Shown here piece by piece: positions 13,325-39,900 of a stretch of DNA of 64,000 nucleotides. Origin of the DNA: Octopus vulgaris (taxonomy: Eukaryota). Under the pieces are notes generated by a model. That model was not told where the DNA came from. It did not search any database and saw only the letters and a list, made by a program, of their open reading frames with translations. The translations under genes and the position numbers were made by a program. Within the stretch, counting starts at the first letter, position 1. Every line of letters begins with the position of its first letter. Where the stretch lies: the NCBI GenBank assembly GCA_951406725.2, contig OX597832.1:4340001-4404000 (forward strand), in the 5' to 3' direction.

Positions 13325-16300
13325 AAAGACACTTTAGGATCAGGACTAAGAGGGCGACTAGAAGACGACCAACATGGAGAAGAAGGGTCTGGAAGCTTAA
13401 AGCCCCTGCGAATGGACAGAGATTTAGAGATATGTTACTTGAAGCCTTCGACGAAGTGGAAGGGGGTATAGCTACACATGGGGTAGAAGACAACTGGACG
13501 TTTCTGAGGGACAACCTGCTGAAAGCCGCTGACCAGATCTGTGGCTGGTGCAAAGTCCCCTTAAGACCCAAAATAACGTGGTGGTGGAACAATATTGTTG
13601 ACAGGGCTATTAGACAAAAGAAACAGGCTTGGAAGGCCTGGAAGAACGGTGGTAGCAGGGAAGGGTATCAGACTGCCAGAAGGGAAGCTAGGAGACAGGT
13701 CTATCTAGCCAGAGGGGAAGCAGATAAGAGAAAATTTGCCAATGTCCTGCGCCGTGAGGATGAAAGACTTGAGGTATTTCGTGTTGCAAGACAGTGTGTG
13801 AGAGAGAATCGTGATGTGGTAGGAGAGAAATGTGTTCGCATGGAGGATGGTTCACTTGCGCTAAATGAGGATGCAAAGAGAGAAGCTTGGAGACGCCACT
13901 ATGAAAGGTTACTGAATGAGGAAAATGAATGGGATAAAGAGAGTCTGCCGAATGTTGACCCTACAGAGGGACCAGCTATCCGAGTTGATAGTTCCGTGGT
14001 AGCTAAGGCAATTAGAAGCATGAAGACAGGGAAAGCCCCAGGCCCATCAGGAATTACTGCAGAGATGCTCAAAATATCTGGCAGTGTCGGCTATAACCTA
14101 GTCACCCGTATAGTCAACCAGGTGATACACGAAGGAGTCATACCCAATGACTGGTGCAGCAGCATACTAGTCAACTGCTACAAAGGTAAAGGTGATGCCC
14201 TAGATACAAATAATTACAGAGGTATCAAGCTGTTGGATCAAGTAATGAAGGTTACGGAGAGGGTCATAGCCCAACTAATTAGAGAGAGAGTTAGTTTAGA
14301 TGAGATGCAGTTTGGGTTCGTGCCAGGGAAAAGTACCACTGATGCTATATTCCTGGTAAGGCAGCTGCAGGAGAAATACCTAGCCAAAGATAAGCCCCTG
14401 TACCTGGCTTTCGTTGACATGGAGAAAGCTTTTGATAGGGTCCCCCGATCCCTTATCTGGTGGTCAATGAGGAAACTAGGGATAGATGAATGGCTGGTGA
14501 GGACTGTGCAAGCCATGTACAGAGATGCCGTAAGTAAGGTTAGGGTTGGCAACATGTACACAGAAGAATTCAAAGTAGAGGTTGGGGTCCACCAGGGTTC
14601 AGTACTCAGCCCCCTCCTATTTATCATAGTACTCCAGGCAATTACGGAGGAATTCAAGACAGGCTGTCCCTGGGAGCTCCTCTACGCTGACGACCTTGCT
14701 CTTATTGCTGAGTCACTATCAGAACTGGAGGAGAAGTTCCAGGTGTGGAAGGAGGGTTTAGAATCAAGGGGCCTTTAGAGTCAACCTAGCTAAAACCAAA
14801 GTACTAATAAGTAGAAAGGTAGACAATCCACAAATATCTTCAGGAAGATGGCCCTGCTCGATCTGTAGAAAAGGTGTAGGTAGAAACTCTATAAGATGTA
14901 CCCAGTGTAAGCTATGGACACATAAGAGGTGCAGCAATGTCAAAGGTAGGCTAACTGGGAAGATAGTTTTTGTATGTGGCAGATGCTCGGGAGCATTAAC
15001 CTCCGAAAATCTGCAGAAAACAACTTCCGTCACTTTCCAGGGGGAAAAACTAGAAGTAGTTGATAGCTTCCGTTATCTAGGTGACCAAGTCAGTAGTGGG
15101 GGTGGGTGCGCTGAAAGTGTAACTGCTAGAATAAGAATAGCCTGGGCAAAGTTTAGGGAGCTCTTACCTCTGCTGGTGACTAAAGGCCTCTCGCTCAGAG
15201 TAAAAGGCAGACTGTATGATGCGTGTGTACGAACAGCCATGCTACATGGCAGCGAAACATGGGCCGTGACTGCTGAGGACATGCGTAAGCTCGTGAGGAA
15301 TGAAGCCAGTATGCTCCGATGGATGTGTAATGTCAGTGTACATACTCGACAGAGCGTTAGCACCTTGAGAGAAATGTTGTACCTAAGAAGCATCAGTTGT
15401 GGTGTGCAAGAGAGACGATTGCGCTGGTATGGTCATGTGGCGAGAATGGATGAAGATAGGTGTGTGAGAAAGTGCCAATCCCTAGCAGTTGAGGGAACCC
15501 GTGGAAGAGGTAGACCCAGGAAAACCTGGGACGAGGTGGTGAAGCACGACCTTCGAACTTTAGGCCTCACTGAGGAAATGACCAGAGACCGAGACCTTTG
15601 GAAATATTCTGTACGTGAGAAGACCAGGCAGGACAAGTGAGCCCAGCCCACTTATGAATGCCTTTCCTCCCTTGGACACAAAGACCGGTTGAGGCAAGCG
15701 AAGTCGATATAGAACCTCATCCGACGACAGACACCCATGCCAACCCCCCATGCTTGCGAAGACATGTTGGGGCAAGCGAAATCGAAATCGAAACCGAATT
15801 GAACCAGCCAGGATCCCTGGCCTGGTGGTACGTAAAAAGCACTATCCGACTCGTGGCCGTGGCACGTAAAATACTCCAATGCGACCGTACGACAGGCACC
15901 CATGCCAACCCCCTTTGCTTGTGAAGACATGTTGGGGCAAGCGAAATCGAAATCGAATTGAACCAGCCAGGATCCCTGGTCTGATGGTACGTAAAAAGCA
16001 CTATCCGACTCGTGGCCGTGGCACGTAAAATACTCCAATGCGACCGTACGACAGGCACCCTTGCCAACCCCCTTTGCTTGTGAAGACATGTTGGGGCAAG
16101 CGAAATCGAAATCGAATTGAACCAGCCAGGATCCCTGGTCTGGTGGTACGTAAAAAGCACTATCCGACTCCTGGCCGATGCCAGCACCGCCTCGACTGGC
16201 TTCCGTGCCGGTGGCACATAAAATACACCAATCTGACCGTGGCCGTTGCCAGCCCCGCCTGGCACCTGTGCAGGTGGCACGTAAAAAGCACCCACTACAC

Positions 16301-16465
16301 TCACGGAGTGGTTGGCGTTAGGAAGGGCATCCAGCTGTAGAAACATTGCCAAATTTAGACTGGAGCCTGGTGCAGCCTTCTGGCTTCCCAGAACCCCGGT
16401 CGAACCGTCCAACCCATGCTAGCATGGAGAACGGACGTTAAACGACGATGATGACGACGACGATG
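13325..16465 (+). mobile_element. RTE-clade LINE, 5'-truncated and young; RT ORF split by a single +1 frameshift at ~14775; 3' UTR with tandem repeats and a (GAT/GAC)n tail
   Basis: ORF 13432-14778 has KAPGPSG, NYRGIKLL, QFGF, FVDMEKAFD, GVHQGSVLSPLLF and LLYADD. Frame 14777-15640 continues open (RVNLAKTK...FRYLG...GSETW...RRLRWYGHV...GRPRKTW). The tail gacgatgatgacgacgacgatg is at 16444-16465. Confidence 0.95.
15724..16178 (+). repeat. ~160-bp tandem repeat (about 2.8 copies) in the RTE 3' UTR
   Basis: acgacag(a/g)caccc recurs at ~15724, ~15889 and ~16048 with near-identical units. Confidence 0.9.
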
Positions 16466-22190: not shown

Positions 22191-22233
22191 GGGGATTTAC
22201 TCCCTCTATCTCTCTCTATATATATATACACAA

Positions 22234-22267
<34 letters not shown>

Positions 22268-22294
22268 ACAAATATATACATATATATATATATA

Positions 22295-22607
22295 CTAGTT
22301 TAAGGTGACCCACTCAATGTGCAGGTAAGAGTGTGGTTGTTACTTTCTGCTGCTTCCTTTCTGCTTTTTATCACCACATTCTCCCTCTTTGTTTCTCTCT
22401 CCTTTCTCTCACACTTTCCCACTCTCTTACTTTTCCTTTCTCTCGGACTCTCCCTCGCTTTCTCTTACTCTCCATCTTTCTCTATCTATCTCTCTCCCAT
22501 TTATAAACAGCAAAAGATCTTGAGTAAGTTGAGAAAGAAAATAGTTTGAAAGATCAATCATAAATATCAGGCAGTGACAACGGAAAGGCAGACAGCAAAA
22601 CACTAAC
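22295..22607 (-). mobile_element. Helitron 3'-end fragment (second terminus)
   Basis: The minus strand ends ...acctgcacattgagtgggtcaccttaaaCTAG|T; about 95% similar by eye to 24208-24532 and 36650-36975. Confidence 0.75.
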
Positions 22608-24207
22608 TGCCACTGTGACAACTGTCTTAAAAGCCAGTGCCAATCAAAAGTGGATAACTTGTCTACCATCAGCAGACTGACAATAATTGAGAGCACAGAT
22701 ATAGCTGTGTGGTTATGTTTGCTACATGACCATGTGGTCTCAAACTGAATCCTATTATGTGTAATCATGTGGGGGAACTGTCTTGTACCATTCCTTACAG
22801 TTGATGAATGGTAAATTAAATTTGGTAGATGGGGAATTATTTATAGAATATGTGATTATATGTACATGGCTAACACTTAGTGGCAAAAAAAAAATTGTGC
22901 TAAATGAGAATGATGATGAGTATGCATATTTCAATGGCTAAGGGTCAGGTACTTCAACCACCACCACTCCTTGCCACACATTGCAGTCATGTGTTTCACC
23001 TGTACACTTCACTAGGGTCCTCCCAGTCATCTTGATATAATTGTTTCATTTACGTCTTTGTTACTCATAAGCCTGTTTTTCATCCATTCAGCCCCTGAGA
23101 ATATGTGCCCAGAGGTTCTGAGCCTTGATAATGAGGTCAAATATAGCAATTTTTACTGTCTGACTGTTGCTACAAGTTTTTTCTTCTCATCCCATTTCTT
23201 CTAGGATCCGGCCATCCATTCAACTAATCTGCAGCACTCCCTTGTAGCATATCATCTCAAACACTAAGTCACTTAGTGTCTGCTGGCTTTAGAGCCTATC
23301 CTTCATCCATACAATGCTACAAGATAAATCAAAACTTCTAGAAGTTTCAGCTTGAAAATTCTGTCTCAGTTGCTTTCTCTTTAACTCAATTGACTTTGTC
23401 TTTTGTACTCTTCTAAGGTTGATAAAATGAGTACCAGGTGAAGCAGACTAAAACCCTTGAAAGTGGTGCTCCTGCATAATCAAAGTACATAGGTGAAAAC
23501 CAGTAAAAACAATAAAAGGGACTGATGATATGATTCAATAGTGCATTGTTCATCAGAAGTAGGAATTTGATTTGCATGTCTTCTCTATAATTATAGTGAC
23601 TAAGATTCATTCAACAACTCCAACACAATAACATTATACTCCAATTCAAGGTGTTTTCAAGATCCCAGTTCAGAGAAATTGTATATAGTTAGGTTCCATT
23701 TGGACGACAACACATGAATGAGGAACTTTAAGGAGTTTATACCTGCACAGAGGTATAGAGTTAACAACGGGGACAAAAACTGTACAAGCTGTGTTGTGTG
23801 ATGTAACCCTAGACAAGACTGAAACATTATATATCACAAAGACATAAATATTCTATTTCTTTATATATTGCAATTTGTAAACAATTGTCTTGGTTAGAGG
23901 ATTCCAATAAATCAATGACTCAATACTTTTCTAATGGTGACAGTGACAAAGGAAGTTTGTAACTTAATGCAGAACAAATATCTTAAAGGACATTATTTAC
24001 AAAGCATCATTTTCTTCTTCATTGATAGACAGAAAAGATAATACACCTACATTGTAATATCCAGTTTTTCCTACTTGCATGGGTTGGAGGGAGTTTACTG
24101 AGGGCAGATTATCTACAATCAGATGCCCTTGCTGTCACTAACACTCACCTGCTTCCCAGCAAGGAAATATTTCCTCATGGCCAGACAATTTTCCAGAATA
24201 TTGGAAA
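22605..24207 (-). repeat. Inverted duplicate of tetraspanin intron-1 segment 36976-38585
   Basis: Continuous reverse-complement match, e.g. aactgccactgtgacaactgtcttaaaagccagtg (22605) versus cactggcttttaagacagttgtcacagtggcagtt (ending 38585). Roughly 98% identity in the part compared by eye. Confidence 0.92.
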
Positions 24208-25196
24208 CTAGCTTAAGGTGACCCACTCTACGTGCAGGTAAGAGTGTGGTTATTACTTTCTGCTGCTTCCTTTCTGCTTTTTATCACTACATTCTCCCTC
24301 TTTGTTTCTCTCTCCTTTCTCTCCCACTTTCCCACTCTCTTACTCTTCCTTTCTCTCGGACTCTTCCTCGCTTTCTCTTACTCTCTATCTTTCTCTATCT
24401 ATCTCTCTCCCATTTATAAACAACAAAAGATCTTGAGTAAGTTGAGAAATAAAATATTTAGAAAGATCAATCATAAATATCAGGCAGTGACAACAGAAAG
24501 GTCTGCTTCAAGGCAGACAGCAAAACACTAACATTTAAAAGGGACAGACAAACTTGCAAGCTGAATAAAAATAAAATAATATTGGAAACCAAAGTTTGAA
24601 GGGATAGAATCTTAGGATAGTAGAGTCACCATGGCTGGCATTTCTTAACGACGGACAGCAATGTATCGACAGTTTAACGGCTGGCGTAAAATTTTGAACT
24701 TGATGTAAAAGAAAATTCCTAAACACCAAGTTTTGAAGTGATTCTTTCTCACGACAGTAGACTCACCATGGCAAGCATTCAAAACTTCTTCATCATGGAC
24801 GGCAACACATTGACGATTAAAAGGCTGGCGCAAATTTTTTAGCTTCATGTAACAGAGAATTCCTAAACACCCACTCCTGTAAATTTTAATCTCCTTTCAG
24901 CCCCATTTAGGCCCCTTTTCACATTTTGGTTAATATAACCCGATTTCATTTGGGTCTACTCGGGCCACGTTTTATAAGATGAGGAATTTTGTCCTAGAGG
25001 TCATGCCTTTCATTTGAGGGAAAAAATTGTTGCCATGCAAACTCGCCAGCACTTTTGACATAGGTGTACATATTTTCAGCTCAACCAACCACATAATGCA
25101 CACATTATATATATATGAGTGTGTGTGTGTATGTATTATATATACAAATGTATACAAATTATATATATATATATATATACATACATACATACATAC

Positions 25197-25233
<37 letters not shown>

Positions 25234-27689
25234 TGATTGATTGATTGATTCTAGTTTCAGCTTATGAGCTGTGGCCATGCTGGGGCACCGCCATTTGGTG
25301 TTGCTACTTGCTTTCACTTCATGGAGGCTTTCTACCAACTGCTATTTGGTGCATGAGAGAGTTCGATGCAGCTGCCCTCATCTGCCCCTCCTGCCGTGAA
25401 GTTGGTTCATCTGGGACACCTGACAGGAAGAGATCCAGCTTCATTTTAAAGACATCTGTATCCACCCCATGCAGGTCTCTCAGGTTCTTCGGGAGGATAT
25501 TGAAGAGCTGTGGGCCTCGGAAGCCCAGGCTATCACAGAATCTTGTCCTACATCTTGATGGCAGGTTTGGAGTCCTAGGCACCACGCAGTGGCGCCCAGT
25601 TCTGGCATTTGCGTAACTCTCGATGCCAAAGTTCAGGACACTTCCCTCCAGGATCTTCCAGATGTATATTATGGCATATCTTTCCCGCCTACGCTCCAGG
25701 GAAAATAATTTTAATCTCTTGAGTCTTTCCCAGTAGCTTACATTCTGCATAGAGGCTATCTTCTTTGTGTAGCTTCGTTGGATCGCCTCAAGTTCTGTGA
25801 TCAACTTGACACTGGATGGTGACCATAGCTGAGAGCAATAGTCAAAGTGGCTTAGGACAAGTGTCTTCCAGAGGACCATCATGGTTTCTTGTTCTCTTGT
25901 TCTAAAGGTTCTAAGAATCCATCCAGCCAGCCGTCTACATTTCATTGTCAGTTTAGCAACATGTACATGAAAGGTCGCGTCATCACTCATGTGAATACCC
26001 AGGTCACGCACTGATTGTGCCTCTGGGATTGCAATCCCTCTGGGTCCAGTGTATTCATTGGGTATTGCATTCAGTTTTGCATGCTGATAGTATAAAGCTT
26101 GAAACTTTCTAGCATTGAACTGCATGCTATTCTTTTCAGCCCACTTGTATATTTCGTCCAGCTCACATTGCAGGTGTTTAGTGTCCTCAGGGTTCTGTAT
26201 TGCCTGTGAAACTTTTGTATCATCTGCATAACTTGTGATCGTGGCTCTCTGCGTGGCTGAGGGCATGTCTGAGAGGGCCATTATGAACAGTAGTGGTCCC
26301 AGAACAGTGCCCTGCGGAACACCGCTCACTATTTGTGTGTTAATGGAGGTGGCCCCATTGGCTACTACCACCTGACTTCTATCCTTCAGAAAGTCATGAA
26401 GCCATTCTCCCAGTTTTCCAACTATGTTGAGATCACGCAGTTTGTGACATATCATTCCATGATCGACTTTATCAAAGGCCTTTGCAAAGTCGAGATATAT
26501 CACTTCCACATTTGAGTGGTTGAGCAGCCGTTTCAGCACCCAGTCATAGTGTTGTAGGAGCTGAGCTAAACAGCTTCTCCCTGGTCGGAAACCATGTTGG
26601 GTGTCGGGCAGCAAGTCATTCTCTTCAAGGAAGGTGATCAGCTTCCTTCTGACTATTCGTTCCATGACCTTGCTGATGTGTGAGGTCAGAGAGATAGGTC
26701 TATAGTTCTTGGCTTCCGCTCTGCTACCTCCTTTATGAATGGGGCATATTTTACCTTCCTTCAGTTTTCCTGGAAGTTTGCCAGCTGCAAGGAAGCTCTG
26801 AAAGAGGAACTGCAGTGGTCTTGCTAGGACTCTCTTACATGCTTTTAGGAGGATTGCCGGGAATCTATCGGGGCCAGTAGCTGAGTCTGTTTTCATTTCA
26901 TCTATAGCCTTGGTTACATCGTCTTCCTTTATATCGATGTAATCTATCGTCGCCGCCTCTGATTTTATATCTGCAGTGGTAAAAAAGTCAGTTGGATTGG
27001 TGATTTGGAGATGCCCAAGGGGTGGAGTGAAAACACTCTTGAATTGCTCATTCAGTATTTCACTTACCCTCATTGGTTTTCCTGTAAGTGTGCCATCCTT
27101 TTCGAGGAGTGGCCCTATTCTACAGTGCACTGTAGCTGTTTCTTTGGCATACCTGTAGAAAGCTCTGGGGTTAGATTTTATGTTTTCTATAGCCCAGGCT
27201 TCTTTGTCTGCTCTTTCTTTTTCATGGGAGAGTTGCAGACATTTTTCGATTTCCAACAGTTTTATTTTTAGGCGGGACTTTTCACTGCTTTCAATCTGTT
27301 TGTTTAGGCGATTTGAAAATTTCGTACGCCGTCTCATTAAAATTTTCCTCTCTCTGGGGATTTTGTTCTTGTGTACAGTGGCCTTTCTCTCTGGGACACA
27401 TTTGTAGCATATGGCTTGCATTACAGACATGAATTGTTGAAGTTTCACGTCGATGTCTGGCGAGGAGAGACATTTAGGCCAGTTTTGTTTGAGGATCTCT
27501 TTCTCAATTTGTTTCCAGTTTGCCTTATGGTAGTTCAAGCTGGAAAGATTTTGAGGGTTTCTTGTAGGCTGCATGTCCGTGCTCTCTTTTGGCCCGTACA
27601 TGGTCAGCTCTATCATGTTGTGATCCGAGAGTAGTGTCGGTGTCACTTTCACATTATGTCGGTGTCACTTTCACATATATATATATATG

Positions 27690-27748
<59 letters not shown>

Positions 27749-28304
27749 CAGATATATACACTTTGTATATATACATTATATATACATATTTATATATAGA
27801 ACACACACACACATATATATAAATTAACCCAATAAATATCTGATTCATAATATTTGTTCTCATGAATGTGTGGTGGTTGTGGTGGTGATAATAAAACTCT
27901 CTATGAATGTAGACAGACAGACGTAGAGAGAGAGAAAGAGAGGGAGGCGGTGGGGAAAAGAGGGACAGCACTGGCGAATGCACCGGGGATGGGTGGGGAG
28001 ATAGTAGTATCTGTCAAACGTCGTTATAGAGAAAAAGTGATGGGAAGGGAGGAAAGAGAGAGAGACGGAGGAAGACATGCAGATAAGAGAATGAGAGGAG
28101 ACTTGTCAAAGTGTGCGTTTTTTTGCCCTAGTAACGATATTTTTAAGATAGGGATTTCTAACCTAACCCACTTGCATCCTCACCTCATTTTACATGTCCC
28201 TGTAAATTTTGGAGTCAATCCAACGGGATCTAGTGCCCTTTAAACCATTCCAATGCCAAAACCAGACAAACAAACTTTTCACATTTCAGATTTATAGATA
28301 TTGA
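24208..28304 (-). mobile_element. Non-autonomous Helitron with a nested CR1 LINE
   Basis: Minus-strand 5' A|TCAATATCTATAAATCTG...GTTTGTTTGTCTG at ~28304; 3' hairpin plus CTAG|T at 24208-24211. The body is homologous to 35711-36975. Confidence 0.7.
25230..27676 (-). mobile_element. CR1-clade LINE, 5'-truncated, with an uninterrupted 777-aa ORF2 portion (25319-27652)
   Basis: End of the endonuclease (LSDHNMI) and RT motifs NYRPISLTS, QHGFRPGRSC, YLDFAKAFDKV, GVPQGTVLGPLLF, YADDTK, RDLG. (AATC)n 3' tail at 25230-25250; inserted in (TA)n. Confidence 0.95.
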
Positions 28305-28931
28305 TATGAATGTATGTATTTCCAGTGTGAAGTTGGAATAAGGAGTATAGCCTGGGCAGCAGTGATGTGTTAGAGATGGAGGATGAAACTAAGTCACTCA
28401 GAAGGGAATAAAAGGTTAGTAGTAGATTATTGGTGGTGGTGGGGTGTCTACGTTAGACTGAGGTTCATGTGGGAATTGTCCAGTAGATTTGTTTCTTAAT
28501 TTGCTCAATTTTCATTTTCATGTAGCTTTCCAAGAGAGAAGGCAAAATGAAGACAACTCGAGAGAGTCTGCAATTGCTACATCAATCCCTGGAAGCCAGT
28601 AGTCCTCAGGGGGGTATCAGACACAAGCCAGGAAAGAAGGATTCAAGATTATAAGCCAGCTGGTAAGTGTGCCTCTCAAGGTTTTATTCACGAGCTGTGT
28701 ACCCATCCTATCTGGTGGAGTCCCTTCTCCACCTGTACCTTCTGATAACAGTGGTACTACAAAAGGTATAAGGTATAAGGAATCATTTATTTTCAGGCCA
28801 GGGGTCTTTCAGAATTCTTGCAATAGTGTGAACCCAGGTTAGTGGGGCTAAATAGTGTGGTATGCTATGCATACCACTTGACAAATTTGTCTTGAGAAAG
28901 AAAAGTATACATTGGTTAATTATTTCTATAC

Positions 28932-29302
28932 AGGCACAGGCATGGCTATGTGGTAAGAAGCTTGCTGCCTAACAACATGGTTCTGGGTTCAGTCCCACTG
29001 CATGGCACCTTGGGCAAGTGTTTTCTACTATAGCTTTGGTCCGACCAAAGCCATGTGAGTGGATTTGATAGATGAAAAATGGAAGAAGCTCATTGTATAT
29101 GTGTGTGTGTGTGTGAGTGTGTGTGGACAACTGGTGCTAGTGTGTTTACATCTGTGTAACTTGGCAGTTCAGCTAAAGAGACCAATAGAATAAGTATCAG
29201 GCTTAAGAAAAAATAAGTGCTGGAGTTGATTCACTTGACTACAAATTCATGAAGGTGGTACTACAGCATAGCTGCAGTCTAATGACAGAAACAAGTAAAA
29301 GA
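28932..29302 (+). mobile_element. Full-length SINE family B with CR1-like 3' tail
   Basis: tRNA-like head, internal (TG)n, tail cagcatagctgcagtctaatgacagaaacaagtaaaaga. Confidence 0.75.
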
Positions 29303-29811
29303 CATTATGTCTGAACCAAAGATAGGCTGGCCATAGCTCAATTGCCTTTCAACATAGGTTATATTCAATCAGGGTTGATTCTGAGTAAAACAGCAACAAC
29401 AACTAATAACAAAACAAATTACTGACCTTTACAATACTAAGTCAGTATGAAAGTCACCAGTTTTTAACACTATATTTCCAGAAACATGCTAAGGTTTCTC
29501 AGAAGTATTTCCTATTGTCTTTGACTTGTAAATATTTAAGATAAAAAATTTTCAGCAAGGAAAAAAATCAAAGCAAATAAAATGAAATTGAGAGAATGGT
29601 GGTTAGTAATGAAAATATTTGTGTTAATTTACCAAGTAGGCAATGGGCTGAATATGCAAGTAAACAACTTCTTGAAGTGGTATTTCACTGTTAATTGGTA
29701 ATCAATAAAACAATAGCAGATGTTACCACAGTAGAATACACAGTAGAAATATCAAAATTCTACTTTCCAATATGTTCATGTAAAGAAATGTATTTACTGA
29801 GTTATTTTTTA

Positions 29812-30150
29812 TAGAGAGAGAGAAAAGCAGAGGAAGAAGAAGAAGAAGAAGAAGAAGAAGAAGAAGAAGAAGAAGAAGAAGAAGAAGAAGAAGAAGAAGA
29901 AGAAGAAGAAGAAGAAGAAGAAGAAGAAGAAGAAGAAAACGAAGAAGAAGAAAACGAAGAAGAAGAAAACGAAGAAGAAGAAGAAAAAAACGAAGAAGAA
30001 GAAGAAAACGAAGAAGAAGAAAACAAGATTGTGTGTGTGAGAGAGAGAGAAAGACAGAAAAACAGGAAGCGAGAGAGAGAGAAAGAGACAGACAAACAGA
30101 GAGACACAGACAGACAGACAGACAAACAGAGAGAGAGAGAGAGAGAAGAA
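29812..30150 (+). repeat. (GAA)n trinucleotide expansion followed by GA/GACA microsatellites
   Basis: Over 30 uninterrupted GAA units from ~29833, then GAAAAC-interrupted units to ~30022. Confidence 0.95.
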
Positions 30151-30599
30151 TGAAACACTGGAGCAAGAAATGAGGGAAGGAAAATAATAAAGGTGGAAAT
30201 TGAATACTTAATCGACAAAATAATCAGAATGTCTTTCCATATTGTTTCTAAGTTACCTAAAAATGTTTTATTGTGAAGTTCATGAACCTTAACGCATAAG
30301 TAATTAGAATAAATTTAGAGAATTGATGAGCGTTGTAACTCTAGGTCGTCACCATCTTAGCAGACTTGTGATCAAACAATATCCCAACTGTGACCATCCC
30401 GTCAATTTAGTGACATCTTGGACTACATTATCTTATGTGTTTTTTCTTTTCTTTGAGACAGTAGAGAACGATTTGAATTGCTGCCATTTCAAGCAAATCG
30501 AGCTATCACATTAAGTCTCCCTTGTTGACTCGAGAAAATTGATGATGATGGTGGTGGTGATATGAAGACGTTAACTTGTTTTAAAGATTATTTCCATTC

Positions 30600-30874
30600 A
30601 GACTTATTTTACTTAAGTAGTTGTCAGGAAAACTTAGCATCTACATTTAAAACTACTGGGAATTTATGCTGTAATTGCAGCTGCAACAAGCATCTTGCCT
30701 CAAGCTCTGGCGCATGCGTACTCTCTGCAGTCTTTTTTCTGCTTGTCTTTCTTTTTTTTTTTTTAATTGAAGGCAAACTGCTTTGCTTTACAGTCCGTAA
30801 TTTGACAGCTGGTAGTTTTGTAGGTCGGACTTCCTTTTTACTTATCTTCAGTTTACCATTTCGTTTGTTGCACA
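30600..30874 (+). promoter_or_regulatory. Putative promoter/5' UTR of the tetraspanin, with an NRF1-like palindrome GCGCATGCGT at 30710-30719
   Basis: Repeat-poor stretch directly upstream of the ATG; the motif resembles the NRF1 consensus GCGCATGCGC. The TSS cannot be determined, and a possible acceptor (tcttcag, ~30851) could indicate an upstream UTR exon. Confidence 0.35.
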
Positions 30875-30967
30875 ATGTCTAAAAATCGGATGCAGTCAGC
30901 TATGGTGTCGGCTCCAGTGGTGACTTGTATGAAAACGTTACTTATGGTTTTCAACTTCATGTTTTGG
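30875..30967 (+). CDS. Tetraspanin coding exon 1 (N-terminus, start of TM1)
   Basis: ATG at 30875, 31 codons ending FNFMFW, donor GTAAGT at 30968. Confidence 0.9.
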
Positions 30968-33953
30968 GTAAGTAACCATGATACAGACGTCTTTAATCTT
31001 ATGTTGTATCAACCAGTTTGTATCACTAAATATCAGTTTTTCATCGTTGTTGTTACTATCGATGTTGCACCTTAAAAAAAAAACCCTGCTTGTATGCTAG
31101 TGTTTAATAAACTATCAATTTATTCTAATATAGGTTCGCTCGATTGTCTTTGATTGAAACCAATTCTGAGACGTAATTTCAGAAGTATAACATAGTGCTA
31201 TAGTTCTTCATTTAGGAAAACAAATATTACTTATTAGAATAACTTTTATTTCAGAATAAATGGTTAATTTTCTTTCCAATTTACTCTATTTGAAAATTGA
31301 TATTAAATATAGATTTATTTAAAATGAAGTTACATGTCTATGTATATGAGGGTGTGTCTATGTTCATTCAAATGTGTGTGTGTGTTTCATATTCATTCAT
31401 GTTTGACATTCGTAGCCTTCACAACTGCGCTTATTTGCCGATACTGGCTGGTTTTCTCTTGTAAACGCACGTATAAATAACATTAACATAATTGTCGGAT
31501 GATATTGCTGGAAAAATGACACTTAGTTCCCTGAAACTTGTGTCTGTCAATCAGACATTTGCGCCGAATTTTTGTTTTGTTTATTCAGTCACCTGTTGTC
31601 TTGCACTTTCATTTCCGATAAATATGACAACATTATGTTATTAAATCATTATGATCGATTATGATTCGGCTGAAGGAGACACATTTTTCTTTCAGATATA
31701 TACATGTACACACACATTGTCGCATGTTTCCCTCTCAAAAGAGGGAAAGTAGCACAATTTAAGGCAAAGTACTAAAATGCATAAAGCATAATGTATGTGT
31801 TTATTTAAAAAAATACTCCTAGAAGACTAATCTGGTGTCCTTCTCTTTAGAATACTTCAAAGTACAATATATGTATACACTGGTAATTATTCTCGTTCAG
31901 TATCAAGCTCTCTTGACCCGTTTCTTTTTCTCTGTCTCATTCATTATTATTATTGTCACTAGAAGCTTCCTTTACTCTCTACTCATCTTTTACTGTTACG
32001 TCTCTTCTCATTGTAGTCTCGTCTGTGACAGTCTCTCAGCTTCACTCCATCTAAATCGCCTCGTTTCTCATTTTCCTGCATCGCCATACAGAACAACTTC
32101 CATTTTCTTTCTTTCCTTCCCCATTTTTGCTCTTCGTATTTTTTCTCTTCTTTCATCCATCTTTCGCCGCATTTCTTCTCCTTTCATTCTTTTCTCTCTC
32201 TCCTCCCATCTCTTCTTTCATTCATCCCCGCTTTCTATCATCTTCCTTCTCTTTCATCCCTCTTTCTATTTCATTTCTCGTTATCCCTCTATTTCCACGT
32301 CTTCTCTTTCACTAGTTTCTCTCTTCTCCTTCAACTTATCCATATTTTTCAATTCTTTTATCCCCCACCTCCTTAATAACCTTATCTCTGTTCTTTTATC
32401 CGTTTCTTTCCCTTTACCCATCTCTCTTTTCACTCTTTCTCTATCGCACCCTTCAGTAACCTTCTCTTTACTGCCATCACTTTTCACCAGTCTCTCTTTC
32501 TCTCTCTCCTTTCTATTCACTCTTTCTTTATCTTTCCTTCTCATCCACTACATTCTCGCTCTCTCTCTTTGTCTCTTTTTCCTTATTTCATTCTTCTCTC
32601 TTTCTTTCCGTTAACTCTTCCTTACCTACTTCTGTTCTCTCCCCACCTCGCTTTTATTCTTTCTTCCTTTCTCTACCCTTTCACTCTCTTTTTTTCTGCC
32701 CCCTTCATATTTTCTTCTATATCTCGTCTCGTCTCAGTTTCTTGATCATACTTAATTCAGTTTGTTATAATCATCTTCAGTCTTCAACTTCTCTTTTTCT
32801 TTTCTTTCTTCTCTCTGTCCTTCCCTCCTGCAGTCTTCTCTCCTTTCAAAATATAATTCAATAGGTACATATCTTTACACTAAACATATTGAAAGATAGA
32901 ATTTGATATTTGAACAGTGTGGTAACATCTGTTTATCTTCTTATTGATTATCTATTAGCAACAAAATATCACTTGAAGTTGTTTATTCAGTTACTCAGGC
33001 CTCACTTTATTTGGTAAATAATCACAAATATTTTGGTTGTTAACCACTGTGTTATCATTAGGCTCCTCTTCACCATAGCATTTTCTATCATTGACATTTT
33101 CCAAATCAAAATGAAAGTAAGCTCTTCATGGCATATAAGTGTCAATATAGTTTATCTTTGGTTAGTCTTATTGACCTGGTATAAAATAACTAGTGTAACC
33201 GTGTCATCAAATGACAGTTGTATTGATTATTGAAAATAGCACAAGTGTTCAAATGAAATTTTTTCTTTCTTTTTAAGAAAATATATTCAATATCATGTAA
33301 TATATTAAAACGAAAATGAAAGTAAAAACGTCAGAGTAGTGAGATAAACATCTCACCCTTCTGCTAGTGTTAATTTTACATCTCCAACTGTCACACACTT
33401 TCAATTTGTTGTCTAATAACCTCCTACATACAATTATCTCATTAGTGTGGTGGATGTTAATGTTATAAAGCCAGTGATGTATTTGAAATAACAAGTGAAC
33501 ATCTCACAAATGACACCTATCTAAAAAAAAAAAAAAAAGTGGGGGTACATTTGGCAATGCAAGTGTTGATATACATAAAGACAGGATAGTCATGCTGGAG
33601 TGTCTTTGAGGAAAGGTCTACAATATGATGGTTGACTTGGGGTTAAAAAGCAGCTACATACCAAAGTTATTTGTTTGGTTATTAATAAAGAGATTTTAAT
33701 CAAAATATAATCAAATGTTTTTTGTTACATATTAATTAGTGTAACAGATGTGAACAAGCATGAAATTGATTCTCAGATTTATCCATTTATTATTTACAGT
33801 TATTCACATCTCTCTTGTAATTTTCTTAATCTCTCTCTCTCTCTCTCTCTCTTCCTCCCATTTTTCCAGTATGTTTGGTAAGTGTCTTCTACTGTAGCCT
33901 CAGATCTACCAAAGCTTCAAGAGTAGATTTGGTAGATAGAAACTGAAAGAAGC

Positions 33954-33992
<39 letters not shown>

Positions 33993-36900
33993 TGGGGGGA
34001 GATTATGAGTTGAATGTACCCTTGCTCCAGTCCTCTGTGAAAAATTTGTTTGGAAATGGGGAAATATTACCTTACTTGGAAACAGGAAGGGCATCATGCA
34101 GTGTCCAACAATCTCCGACCTGTGGGCTTATGTCAAACGACTGCTGTCACGTGTGGGACGAGTCGGTTTATCAGCCGAGTCTATCGTTAATATCATCATG
34201 CCTCCTTCCTTCAAACGGGAAGGAAGAGCTATTTTTATCATACTTGTGGCTATGGCGAAAGAATGTATCTGGTGGACACAGCTGAAAGGATTAGAGACAA
34301 ACACTTTCCTCTTTGGTCAATCTCTCATCAACTTCTTCAAGTATCACTTGAAATGGAAATTGAGAGTAGAGAGGCAAGTTTTGCCTAGTGAATGTTTTAA
34401 AAAAAGATGGGTGAATGTAGCAAGGATGGCACGATGAATGACGAAGCCACCTTGAATATGATCCTATGAACCGTAAAAATTAATACAGAGAGTTGCTATT
34501 TGTAAAAAAATATAACATGTGACTTCATTGACCGAGGTTACCATGGTCTTTTCCGTAGGCTTTTCTTTCCATGGGTAAACCTCACTTGTCTTCCCCTTTA
34601 CACTTTACATTGACATTTCTGTGATAACGATCCCTATTGATCGATTTTTTCTTTTTTTTTTCTTTTGCTTTTTCTTTCCATTTATGATCCCTTTTGAATG
34701 AAAACCAACCCACCTTTTTTATCTCCAAAAAGAAAAGCTCTACCTTGTAATTTGTCCCATCTATGTGCAGCCCTGTGTGGCTAATAAAGAAACATATCTA
34801 TCTATCTATCTGTCTATCTATCTGTTTGTCTATCTGTCTGTCTGTCTATCTGTCTGTATAACTCTCCGTTTATCTGTTTATCTAACCGTCTATCTATCTA
34901 TCAATCAAGACATACAGGCAGACATCTCTTTCTCTCTGTGTTTCACATTATATTCATAAGACTTCACTTGACCCCATGTTTACAAATGCACGAGTTTATT
35001 AATGTTTATTCTTTACACTAATCATTAAAAATGAAATTATTTATGTAATCCATAATTCTATCTGCCTGTTGATATTGGAAGGTGATCACAATTTTAACAT
35101 CAATAAGTATATGAAGCAGTTGCCGCATAATTTGATTGGGATCAATAGTTGCGGGTTTGACTGGTACTTAAACAACTTACTTTACAACCATGTGATTCCA
35201 GACTGTGATCCCATTGTATTGCAGCTTAGAGAAATATCTTTCACCATAGCTTTGCGCATAGTCTGTGCATAAAATCTGGTAAATGGAAACTGTGCAGAAG
35301 ACAGTCATATGATCGTGTGTGTATTTGTGCTTGTGTATGTGTGTTTATGTCATCATCATTTAGCATCTGTTTTCCATGCTGGCATGGGTTAGATGGTTTG
35401 AATAGAACAGGTAAGCTGAAGAGCTGCACCAGGCTCTTGTCTGTTTTGGCGTGGTTTCTACAGTTGGATGCTCTTCCTAATGCCAAACACTCCACAGAGT
35501 GTATGAGTGCCTTTTACACTCTCACACACACACACACACACAAACACACTCTTATATATACAAAGTGCATTCAAAGAGTATCAGACTTTATATTTTCCCG
35601 ATGAAAACTAATGTTGTGTGGGCACATCAGTTTCTGGTTGTGTCAGTCTCGAGTACTGACATGTTATGCCTAGAGTACAGAAGTGAAGTGCTTGCTTGCC
35701 AGATTTTTGTTCCATCTCTCTCTCTTTCATCCCTTCCTTTCACTTTCTCTCTATAACGTCGTTTGACACCGTCTACTATCTTTCCCCCACTGCCTTCGCC
35801 AGCGTTGTCACACTCTCTCTCTCTCTCTCTCTACGTCTGTCTGCATTGATAGAGAGAATTATCATCGCCACCATGCCACACAATCATGAGAACAAATATT
35901 ATGAATCAGATATTTATTGGGTTTATATATGTGTGTGTGTGTGTTCTATATATAAATATGTATATATAATGTATATATACAAAGTATATATATACTTGTA
36001 TATATAATGTGTACATACACACACATATATATAATGTGTATATATGTACATATATATATTTAATGGCTATATATATATATAATGTGTGCATTATGTGGTC
36101 GGTTGAGCTGAAAATATGCACACCTATGTTAAAAGTGCTGGCGAGTTTGCATGGTAACTATTTTTTTCCTCAAATGAAAAGCTTGACCTCTAGGACAAAA
36201 TTCCTCATCTTATAAAATGTGGCCCGAGTAGACCCAAATGAAATCGGGTTATATTAACAAAAATGTGAAAAGGGGTCTAAATGGGGCTGGAAGGGGATTA
36301 AAATTTACAGGAGTAGGTGGTTAGGAATTCTTGGTTACATCAAGCTAAAAAATTTGCGCCAGCCTTTAAATCATCAATGTGTTGCTGTCCATGATGAAGT
36401 TTTGAATACTTGCCATGGTGAGTCTACTGTCGTGAGAAAGAATCACTTCAAAACTTGGTGTTTAGGAATTTTCTTTTACATCAAGTTCAAAATTTTACAC
36501 CAGCCGTTAAACTGCCACTACGTTGCTGTCCGTCTTTAAGAAGTGCCAGCTATGATGACTCTACTATACTCAGATTCTATCCCTTCAAACTTTGGTTTCC
36601 AATATTTTTTAATTTTTATTCAGCTTGCAAGTTTGTCTGTCCCTTTTAAATGTTAGTGTTTTGCTGTCTGCCTTGAAGCAGGCCTTTCCGTTGTCACTGC
36701 CTGATATTTATGATTGATCTTTCAAACTATTTCTTTCTCAACTTACTCAAAATCTTTTGTTGTTTATAAATGGGAGAGAGAGGGATAGAGAAAGATAGAG
36801 AGTAAGAAAAAGCGAGGGAGAGTCCGAGAGAAAGGAAAAGTAAGAGAGTGGGAAAGTGGGAGAGAAAGGAGAGAGAAACAAAGAGGGAGAATGTGGTGAT

Positions 36901-39900
36901 AAAAAGCAGAAAGGAAGCAACAGAAAGTAACAACCACACTCTTACCTGCGCATAGAGCGGGTCACCTTAAGCTAGTTTCCAATATGCTGGAAAATTGTCT
37001 GGCCATGAGGAAATATTTCCTTGCTGGGAAGCAGGTGAGTGTTGGTGACAGCAAGGGCATCTGATTGTAGATAATCTGCCCTCAGTAAACTCCCTCCAAC
37101 CCATGCAAGTAGGAAAAACTGGACATTACAATGTAGGTGTATTATCTTTTCTGTCTATCAATGAAGAAGAAAATGATGCTTTGTAAATAATGTCCTTTAA
37201 GATATTTGTTCTGCATTAAGTTACAAACTTCCTTTGTCACTGTCACCATTAGAAAAGTAATGAGTCATTGATTTATTGGAAAATTCTAACCAAGACAATT
37301 GTTTACAAATTGCAATATATAAAGAAATAGAATATTTATGTCTTTGTGATATATAATGTTTCAGTCTTGTCTAGGGTTACATCATACAACACAGCTTGTA
37401 CAGTTTTTGTCCACGTTGTTAACTCTATACCTCTGTGCAGGTATAAACTCCTTAAAGTTCTTCATTCATGTGTTGTCGTCCAAATATATACAATTTCTCT
37501 GAACTGGGATCTTGAAAACACCTTGAATTGGAGTATAATGATATTGTGTTGGAGTTGTTGAATGAATCTTAGTCACTATAATTATAGAGAAGACATGCAA
37601 ATCATATTCCTACTTGTGATGAACAATGCACTATTAAATCATATCATCAGTCCCTTTTATTGTTTTACTGGTTTTCACCTATGTACTTTGATTATGCAGG
37701 AGCACCACTTTCAAGGGTTTTAGTCTGCTTCACCTGGTACTCATTTTATCAACCTTAGAAGAGTACAAAAGACAAAGTCAATTGAGTTAAAGAGAAAGCA
37801 ACTGAGACAGAATTTTCAAGCTGAAACTTCTAGAAGTTTTGATTTATCTTGTAGCATTGTATGGATGAAGGATAGGCTCTAAAGCCAGCAGACACTAAGT
37901 GACTTAGTGTTTGAGATGATATGCTACAAGGGAGTGCTGCAGATTAGTTGAATGGATGGCCAGATCCTAGAAGAAATGGGATGAGAAGAAAAAACTTGTA
38001 GCAACAGTCAGACAGTAAAAATTACTATATTTGACCACATTGCTATATTTGACCACATTATCAAGGCTCAGAACCTCTGGGCACATATTCTCAGGGGCTG
38101 AATGGATGAAAAAACAGGCTTATGAGTAACAAAGACGTAAATGAAACAATTACATCAAGATGACTGGGAGGACCCTAGTGAAGTGTACAGGTGAAGCACA
38201 TGACTGCAATGTGTAGCAAGGAGTGGTGATGGTTGAAAGTACCTGACCCTTAGCCATTGAAATATGCATACTCATCATCATTCTCATTTAGCACAATTCT
38301 TTTTTTGCACTAAGTGTTAGCCATGTACATATAATCACATATTCTATAAATAATTCCCCATCTACCAAATTTAATTGACCATACATCAACTGTAAGGAAT
38401 GGTACAAGACAGTTCCCCCACATGATTACACATAATAGGATTCAGTTTGAGACCACATGGTCATGTAGCAAACATAACCACACAGCTATATCTGTGCTCT
38501 CAATCATTATCAGTCTGCTGATGGTAGACAAGTTATCCACTTTTGATTGGCACTGGCTTTTAAGACAGTTGTCACAGTGGCAGTTGTAGTAAAAATAGGG
38601 CTGCTACTCTCACCACCTTATTTATTTATCTATTTTTTCTCCTGAATTGAAGAGTTTTATTTCTATTCATCCCCATCTGAAATATTTCTGCTCCTTGAAT
38701 CCAAAGCCAACATCTGTTTTTGTCATTCCTTCTATATCAACACTGTTGATGGATATATGTTGAAACATATCCTCCCCTATTCTTTCTGTGATCTAGCTTA
38801 TTAACTCAACTTTCTTCTCCCTTACTCTGCCATTAAACTCTTTGACCCTGTAAGATCATTACCTAGTGAATGCAATCCACTTTCAAGCTGTTTTGTAACT
38901 TGCTAGAAATAACAACCAAATTTCCTTCAAATTAAACCTTATTGTTTTTAAAATGAAGGACACATTAAAATGTATTATAAAAGACTAGATGGTTGTGATT
39001 AAATAAAGTCATGCTGGGGTACCATCTTCAAGTGTTTTAGTCAGATATGTCAACCACAATTTGATAGATTCGGTAGATGGAATCTGTGAAGAAGAATATT
39101 TTGTGGGCGTGTGTTTTGTGCATGTGTGTGTGTGTGTGTGTGTTATCTTTTTGCCATGTATATTGGCAGTTTCATCAGAGCCAGCCTAGGGATAAACAAC
39201 AACTACACAACATCCTCAGCCTCTCGAACTATCTGTTGACTTCTCATCAACTTAACTGATTAGAGGTCTATTAATCCAATTATTTTTGGTAGCAAATCTA
39301 CTTTACCTCTGACCTTTTCAAAACTGAAGCATATGACTGAAATCATCACCTTTCCTTCCAATTCCACACATAAACAGAAAAATTCTATCCCAAACTGCTC
39401 TTTGTGATCTTATTTGGTGACATGCACACAATCCCCAAATGAAAATTCTTCCCCAACCTCTTCAGTACTAGACAATATTTCAATCTGAGGGGCAAGATCC
39501 CTATTAACACCCTCAAACAATGATTCTCTGATCTAACTCTTTTCTCTACTGATTTCTTTAATTATTCTTCATAGTTTTTTGAGCATTCCAACCATGCTCA
39601 TTCTATATATTCATCCTTTTAAGATAATAGGGTATAGTTTGAAGGAGATTTGACTGCTGTTTGTCATAGGCTGCTTCATTTTAAAGCATTATTAAAGTTT
39701 GTACCATCTTGTATATGTCTACTATGTTATGACAACCAGGCTTCCAATTGGTTCGATCTACTGAACAGCCTGCTCATGAAATTCACCTGCAAGTGGCTGA
39801 GCATTCCACAGTCACGCTGAATCTCATGGAGATTCAGCAGGACACAGAATGTGACAAGGCTGGCCCTTTGAAATACAGGAAAAACTCATTTTTGTCAGCT

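Follow-up and report, generated by a model that had tools for sequence, protein, structure and literature searches.

Organization of the locus

We analysed a 64,000-nucleotide stretch of the Octopus vulgaris genome (assembly GCA_951406725.2, contig OX597832.1, positions 4,340,001 to 4,404,000; hereafter the window, in whose coordinates positions are given) that carries two copies of a non-autonomous Helitron beside and within a tetraspanin gene. The upstream element, X, runs on the minus strand from 28304 to 24208, and its body and CTAG end are together called M. The other copy, I, is intronic. The 1.6 kb of intron DNA that follows I, called b, recurs behind X as a derived copy, b', which passes into a third Helitron end, T. 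A preliminary description read this arrangement as a Helitron read-through capture. Our analysis makes it more likely that break repair between two old resident Helitrons duplicated the 1.6 kb, a probably neutral event whose product mimics read-through capture. The features are as follows, with a slash marking the boundary between element and flank.

27675 to 28304, minus strand: 5' part of X, a non-autonomous Helitron, with the A/TC end, a pyrimidine-rich segment and an internal TA tract
25231 to 27674, minus strand: 5'-truncated long interspersed nuclear element (LINE) with an (AATC)5 tail, in the TA tract of X; 781-amino-acid frame, RVT_1 E=1.5e-30
24208 to 25230, minus strand: body and first 3' end of X (M), with a decayed hairpin; CTAG ends at 24208
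24208 to 24224, minus strand: switch window, the last 17 nt, in which M equals I throughout; last difference at 24225/36958
22605 to 24207, minus strand: b', derived copy of the intron DNA (1,603 bp); 25 substitutions in 1,588 columns against 36976-38585
22605 to 22607, minus strand: GTT microhomology (3 nt; AAC on the opposite strand), where b' passes into Helitron position about -325
22295 to 22607, minus strand: T, third Helitron end, 313 bp, with a 12-bp deletion; CTAG ends at 22295
22217 to 22294, minus strand: 3' flank, an imperfect (TA)n tract after the final CTAG, read from the sequence
30875 to 30967, plus strand: first coding exon found of the tetraspanin gene, 31 codons with a phase 0 donor, from its translation
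35711 to 36975, plus strand: I, the intronic Helitron, without its first ~235 bp and 5' TC; CTAG ends at 36975
36976 to 38585, plus strand: b, donor copy of the 1.6 kb; the sequence beyond 38585 is unrelated

The minus-strand coordinates given earlier for the composite (A/TC at 28304, CTAG at 24208, 24207 to 22605, then a second end from 22607 to 22295) hold, as does the recurrence of the same 1.6 kb behind the intronic CTAG, followed by unrelated sequence. What had been described as the body of the upstream element is Helitron only in its outer parts, however, since 2.44 kb of it is a LINE that had gone unreported. Similarly, the CTAG end and flank of I had been recognized, but not the loss of its 5' TC with the first ~235 bp. 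The terms "upstream of the gene" and "intron 1" are right only relative to the first coding exon found, coding exons alone having been considered. That exon has no Pfam match by itself and is in phase with an exon from 53236, which matches positions 14-76 of Pfam Tetraspanin. About 850 bp before it lies a (GAA)n tract of ~190 bp with GAAAAC variants (29830-30025).

X and I stand in opposite orientation, their CTAGs 12.8 kb apart. Self-BLAST of the window returns a single inverted match of 2,659 columns (22605-25227 against 38585-35947), and T matches M and I over 326 columns each. The outer ends of the composite are canonical (A/TC ... CTAG/T) and its outer flanks read ...cattcata / tatata..., but TATATATA follows 33 of 103 family ends, and an empty A/T site was not seen. 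At the right joint, b' and T have only GTT in common, the AAC of the preliminary description. There b' ends and joins an internal Helitron position, and the donor flank continues otherwise. A microhomology of 3 nt could, taken alone, be chance.

The first ~155 bp of b are the right half of an old repeat (77-82% identity). I sits in this repeat (window 35711; 36976-37130), whose left half is gone along with the first ~235 bp of I, which suggests that a later deletion in the intron removed the two together. No left half was seen at the 5' flank of X or of I in the flanking sequence listed.

A step in divergence at the CTAG

The self comparison shows that identity is not uniform across the CTAG of X. 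Behind it, b and b' differ at 25 of 1588 positions, or 1.6%, close to the ~2% estimated by eye. Ahead of it, M and I differ at 52 of 890 positions, or 5.8%, the alignment having 35 differences in 571 columns of Helitron body and 17 in 326 columns of the last part. After the last of these differences, the 17 nt up to the end of the CTAG are identical. The step is strongly significant (Fisher p = 2e-8) and persists when CpG sites are removed (p = 6e-6, with CpG masks that differ slightly between the two sides). The three Helitron ends in the window differ pairwise by 12/311, 14/312 and 17/323, or 3.9-5.3%, in agreement with the 4-5% first proposed.

X is not a copy of I, because the two are 5.8% apart and carry different lineage markers. 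M has five non-CpG sub-lineage markers in common with family loci L131 and L167 that are absent from I, and its nearest relative among 86 unique copies is L131, at 3.84%, not I. Over the 570-bp body, I and M have no shared non-CpG derived base. In the variable 5' segment, I reaches only 75-78% identity with X, while other copies reach 87-92%. The age of X, like that of I, is about three to four times that of the divergence between b and b'. At 0.0036 substitutions per million years, the rate as used in PMC13282606, a very rough dating places the b split at 2-2.5 million years and the Helitrons at 7-8.5 million years.

Reality and direction of the duplication

Searches of the assembly with the 1.6 kb found two full copies of b among the 40 best-scored of 2,025 and of 81 candidates, and no further copy of the composite. 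We therefore reject the idea that the 1.6 kb is a usual part of the Helitron family: only the two matches are full, and the others are short old repeats with 67-89% identity.

We compared the locus with contigs from five of 24 listed runs: X1 (organism A), X2 (organism B), X15 (organism C), X18 (organism D) and X20 (organism E). The threshold for a joint was 31 letters per side. In X1, depth is 32-36 on b and 18 beyond it (about 2:1), a contig breaks exactly at 38585, a bubble holds both copy types, and one contig crosses the joint of M and b with 53 + 47 letters per side. X20 and X18 have joints that fall short of the threshold. In X20 the joint of b and T is present with one substitution and extends 27-28 letters into T; an M-type end also adjoins b, of which it includes 28 letters, and there is almost no cover beyond 38585 at 96% likeness. 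In X18, the Helitron end on b (36945-37005, 31 + 30 letters, just short) departs from I at 2 positions, against the 4 expected of an M-type end. This I-like end led us to reject a replacement of the intronic Helitron by another copy after the event. Single contigs of X2 and X18 run from b past 38585 into the intron continuation. The joint of b and T was not listed for organisms B and D, although contigs cannot show absence and depth in X2 varies (201 vs 124).

The contigs identify the intron arrangement as the donor, because those of X2 and X18 continue natively from b into the intron. The duplication is common to at least two organism labels, A and E. Thus the earlier proposal of a local duplication with donor and product both preserved is upheld by the depth and branch in X1, the joint in X20 and the X2 and X18 contigs. 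An inversion with staggered breaks was also considered and rejected, by reasoning only: it needs a chance joint exactly at the CTAG, and the native continuation of b in X2 and X18 does not fit it.

The same contigs bear on the divergence step. A faster clock in the Helitron parts is disfavoured because the M end in X20 differs at 1 site in 139 nt, where about 7 differences would be expected at the 5.8% rate (P = 0.008). At 37323, 37650 and 38083 (partners 23860, 23522 and 23106), b and b' have a common base that is absent from X2, X18 and X20. These sites suggest slight gene conversion between b and b', which lie inverted to each other, or else polishing of the assembly, and adding them raises the divergence of b to 1.8%. 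An 11-bp deletion occurs in the window intron, X2 and X18, and a 14-bp deletion in X2, X18 and X20 (37484; 38032-38065). The uneven sharing of indels among organisms A, B, D and E suggests an old polymorphism sorted across close relatives.

X15 is about 6% away. Its depth is zero in the bins 22490-22551 and 24226-24287, both wholly inside Helitron ends, a weak hint that the Helitron family is younger than the split from organism C. Its contig continues for 1,142 letters past 22605 in a sequence unlike T.

The Helitron family and a young LINE

The family consists of non-autonomous Helitrons of ~1.65 kb, with 1,591-2,732 first-look candidates in the main searches. Each family search scored the 40 best candidates, so that the sample leans to copies near the window's own. 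The 5' end, A/TCAATATC, falls at the same point in 17 of 19 family loci and in X; I is truncated there. The 3' end is CTAG/T in 25 of 28 family loci and at all three ends in the window. About 10 nt before this end lies a hairpin with a 6-bp stem, which in the intact copy L013 has -6.7 kcal/mol (z -1.46, not significant on shuffles alone). At the window ends the hairpins have decayed through CpG loss to between -2.8 and -3.7 kcal/mol, M having -3.7.

Distances were taken from 86 unique copies with at least 700 bp aligned, after window loci, duplicates and shorter matches had been dropped. The distance to the family majority has a minimum of 1.69% and a median of 3.07%; X and I stand at 3.7-3.8%. 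The closest pair is 1.72% apart (1 of 3,655 pairs). It falls in a sub-lineage (L131, L184, L186, L188 and eight more) with a retroelement-tail insertion of 240-320 bp some 85 bp before the CTAG. This insertion matches window positions 16148-16465 at 88% and was copied along with the element. No sibling of X near 98% appeared among the 40 best-scored of 2,666 candidates, the best reaching 94-96%.

Tandem arrangements are common in the family. Another family piece follows at 18 of 78 ends with 1 kb of flank, and the exact head-to-tail joint CTAG/TC occurs at 7 of 72 ends. Head-to-tail arrays with exact CTAG/TCAATAT joints are found at L134 (G000:C7:105715500-105725499), L074, L089 and L098, their units differing by 2-10%. 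No family piece lies within 10 kb on either side of the window. A parallel composite was not found either: all three solo 3' ends checked are without a family piece in the 8 kb upstream.

The 2.44 kb within X is a 5'-truncated LINE (27674 to 25231) with a 781-amino-acid reverse-transcriptase frame. Over 759 bp, 39 of the 39 other scored copies, from 2,033 candidates, are listed at 100%. Its 3' kilobase has only 184 candidates, with 96-100% identity, so the two halves differ in copy number. Its (AATC)n tail sits at an AATC of the Helitron TA tract, and its first ~20 nt are duplicated. The LINE is very young, landed after the duplication and has no part in the mechanism. We rejected it as a clock for X, since it is too young to inform. 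A second LINE lies at 13327-15640 on the plus strand, with frames of 483 and 292 amino acids, a frame change between them, and RVT_1 E=3e-27.

The third Helitron end

T is related to both resident copies. I and M are its second and third best matches among the other 39 scored, and T shares five derived bases with I and five with M, together 8 of its 13. By comparison, 74 other copies share at most four derived bases with I or M, and only 3 of 2,701 background pairs share at least five. The likeness to M is concentrated in the last 70 bp of T, which hold 5 of 6 of M's derived bases; the first 240 bp hold 0 of 6 of M's and 2 of 8 of I's. T is also without M's two lineage markers in range (columns 676 and 688). 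At 4.5% divergence and five shared bases, M and T lie inside the range of 12 same-strand pairs of neighbours, which differ by 2.0-10.4% and have 0-8 such bases in common. The copies L058, L079 and L124 have internal deletions with an end at a comparable position. We lean slightly towards T being the stump of a tandem unit that already stood behind X; that it is a mosaic, copied first from I and then from X, is a less probable but substantial alternative. An origin of T from a deletion subfamily was rejected: L107 has the 12-bp deletion but 0 of 13 of T's substitutions, and the X20 contig appears to be without the deletion. The deletion, between GCC repeats (22587-22588), is independent in T and in L107, which lies on another contig.

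A probable repair origin for the composite

We consider it likely, at a probability of roughly 0.6, that a break at the 3' end of X was repaired from I after both copies had become resident, as in gap-filling or duplication-dependent strand annealing (DDSA). The starting point would be two ~1.65-kb Helitrons of different sub-lineages in opposite orientation, both likely inserted during the family burst, given that they are 3.7-3.8% from the majority against a sample median of 3.1%. A later break likely fell at or just behind the CTAG of X, in the TA tract or in a following tandem unit. The end of X could then have paired with I over ~1.2 kb of 94% identity, its unpaired tail being trimmed back to the end of the likeness, which is the CTAG, where synthesis would begin. 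Once 1.6 kb had been synthesised, the strand would have joined, at GTT, with Helitron sequence ~325 bp short of an end. The final end would be either the pre-existing tandem stump or the mosaic copied on return. The composite has stayed in place since then, and the young LINE landed inside it later.

Trimming of an unpaired tail to the end of likeness is established repair behaviour, and a step within the last 17 nt is therefore expected. Repair on an ectopic repeat copy (PMC3276153, PMC8277862, PMC6544945) predicts a single copy, a donor nearby, short joints and an insert that is younger, and the locus shows all four: the insert is the younger part, there is one derived copy, with its donor close in cis, and the joints have 17 nt (inside 94% likeness) and 3 nt of microhomology. 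The earlier suggestion of a template switch between two resident copies at the terminus is well founded, the switch lying within the last 17 nt and between different sub-lineages.

Several observations weigh against this repair origin. That X was resident before the capture is inferred from dating only. The left breakpoint is terminal (the right one is internal), and gap-filling breakpoints lean internal, as a tendency and not a rule (PMC8277862). One family pair is only 1.72% apart, and 178 recently active Helitron insertions are described for O. vulgaris (PMC13282606), so transposase may have been present. The decayed hairpins at all three ends would favour bypass and are the best point for it. 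No re-invasion scars were seen in b', though they are not required in a 1.6-kb tract; the two larger indels between b and b' belong to the intron copy or occur in related organisms too. The bias of the family sample to copies near the window's own also counts here. Finally, T fits neither of its possible origins smoothly. As a mosaic it is too diverged (11/312, against 1.7% expected; P = 0.02). As a tandem stump it lacks M's markers, and its sharing with I needs conversion or chance. With five derived bases common to T and I, and three to I and M, some conversion or chance is needed.

Alternative explanations

The switch may instead have been set by transposase. In that case RepHel would have nicked X at its CTAG, a bond that doubles as the 5' nick site where a tandem unit follows, the 3'-OH would have primed on I or joined I's cut flank, and the copy would have been made in place. 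We think this unlikely; it would amount to an end exchange by transposase between two resident elements that yields a composite with intact outer termini and no transposition. The location speaks for it, in that the switch lies within 17 nt of a cleavage site, a target of 1-2% of the shared length. Helraiser is cut exactly at its termini, and synthesis is primed from the 3'-OH (PMC4778049). The exact head-to-tail joints of the family are also in its favour, as is the recent activity of some Helitrons (PMC13282606). However, ordinary repair with tail trimming predicts an identical joint, and no copy of the 86 is less than 1.69% from the majority, against about 0.8% per lineage for b.

A single transposition, starting at the 5' TC, bypassing the terminator, carrying the 1.6 kb to a new end and landing at a fresh A/T site, would explain the canonical outer ends (A/TC ... 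CTAG/T) and agrees with the decayed hairpins. With Helraiser, about 12% of events take 1.6 kb of flank along, a share that is 36% without the hairpin (PMC4778049). Yet one peeled molecule should leave M and I about 1.7% apart, and 52 differences in 890 are seen (P = 1e-13). I is without a 5' TC. A chimeric donor must have existed and then vanished. Insertion as near as 13 kb to the donor would be unlikely unless the element hopped locally, and Helraiser does not (PMC4778049). Lastly, the new end consists of internal Helitron DNA, whereas something else stands downstream of b in the donor. The bypass during transposition that was first proposed is not supported, given a donor without 5' TC, the 5.8% between M and I, and a new end that is a microhomology joint, and we regard it as improbable.

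We give no better a chance to an old capture at the time of the family burst, after which gene conversion would have kept the b copies alike while the Helitron parts drifted. The three sites with a base common to both b copies and absent from X2, X18 and X20 speak for such a history, and the three ends share more derived bases than chance would give. However, conversion must have spanned 1.6 kb and yet halted at the CTAG, on the far side of which the likeness is still 94%. In the 570-bp body, I and M have no shared non-CpG derived base, and their lineage markers differ. In addition, b' keeps outgroup bases where the intron copy agrees with related organisms (for example at 23770, 23556 and 22892), and therefore was not recently reset.

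An assembly artefact, with two haplotypes of one locus placed in tandem, is very improbable: the 1.6% is near what separates individuals, or related organisms, in these data (about 1-2%), but X1 has the 2:1 depth, the break at 38585, the two-type bubble and the contig joining M and b, and X20, under another organism label, has the joint of b and T, albeit below the 31-letter bar.

Comparison with known systems

DNAREP1 is a Helitron-type family. Young Drosophila duplicates flanked by it (PMC2211543) resemble our case in having a largely inactive repeat at the breakpoints and in setting recombination against transposition as explanations; those duplicates carry genes, whereas here intron DNA without a frame or known function was copied. 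The closer parallel is to gap-filling Pack-TIRs (PMC8277862), with a single copy, a cis donor, microhomology, a capture that probably came after insertion, and no further transposition. Here, in contrast, the host is a Helitron, and one joint was made via a second copy of the element, at its terminus. By the account in PMC3276153, DDSA likewise repairs a broken repeat off an ectopic copy, duplicates adjoining DNA and leaves the repeat at one breakpoint and microhomology at the other. Our case differs in that no re-invasion scars were seen and the far end meets another Helitron end, so that the product resembles an intact composite.

Among Helitron models, the filler-DNA model (PMC6544945) also has host DNA entering when a break is repaired, and its joints to the source are short. 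That filler lies inside the element and the new exemplars were amplified; here the insert follows a complete CTAG and has not spread. Helraiser end bypass with 3' transduction (PMC4778049) yields the same order of parts (5' TC, body, hairpin-CTAG, flank, new end) and fits a decayed hairpin. Helraiser needs a 5' TC end, and bypass peels one strand from one donor (PMC4778049). Element and flank should then be equally old, with the new end further along the donor, and neither holds here. Instead, the element differs from its flank in source copy and in age, the donor is without a 5' end, and the new end is a microhomology joint to Helitron DNA. There is no single donor for 5' end, body and flank, identity is not even, and the terminus does not lie in the donor flank. 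Thus the case is outside the end-bypass class and works like a single-copy gap-filling capture. The literature that we found contains the models cited here, but in a search that took in few subscription papers there was no dated switch between two copies at a Helitron CTAG.

Implications

Whether Helitrons take up host DNA by bypass or by repair filling is still debated, and the evidence comes mostly from old products that have lost their donor. Here the donor, the recipient and both joints survive and can be dated. The copied DNA is intronic and shows no sign of function. The end exchange by transposase, if true, would add to end bypass and internal filler DNA a third way in which Helitrons capture sequence, one that could recruit the flanks of dead, 5'-less copies. 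At this locus, a layout that is usually scored as read-through joins parts of unlike age and origin. Surveys that count structures of CTAG, flank and new end as bypass should therefore be read with caution, and comparing divergence on either side of the first CTAG is a test that could be made genome-wide.

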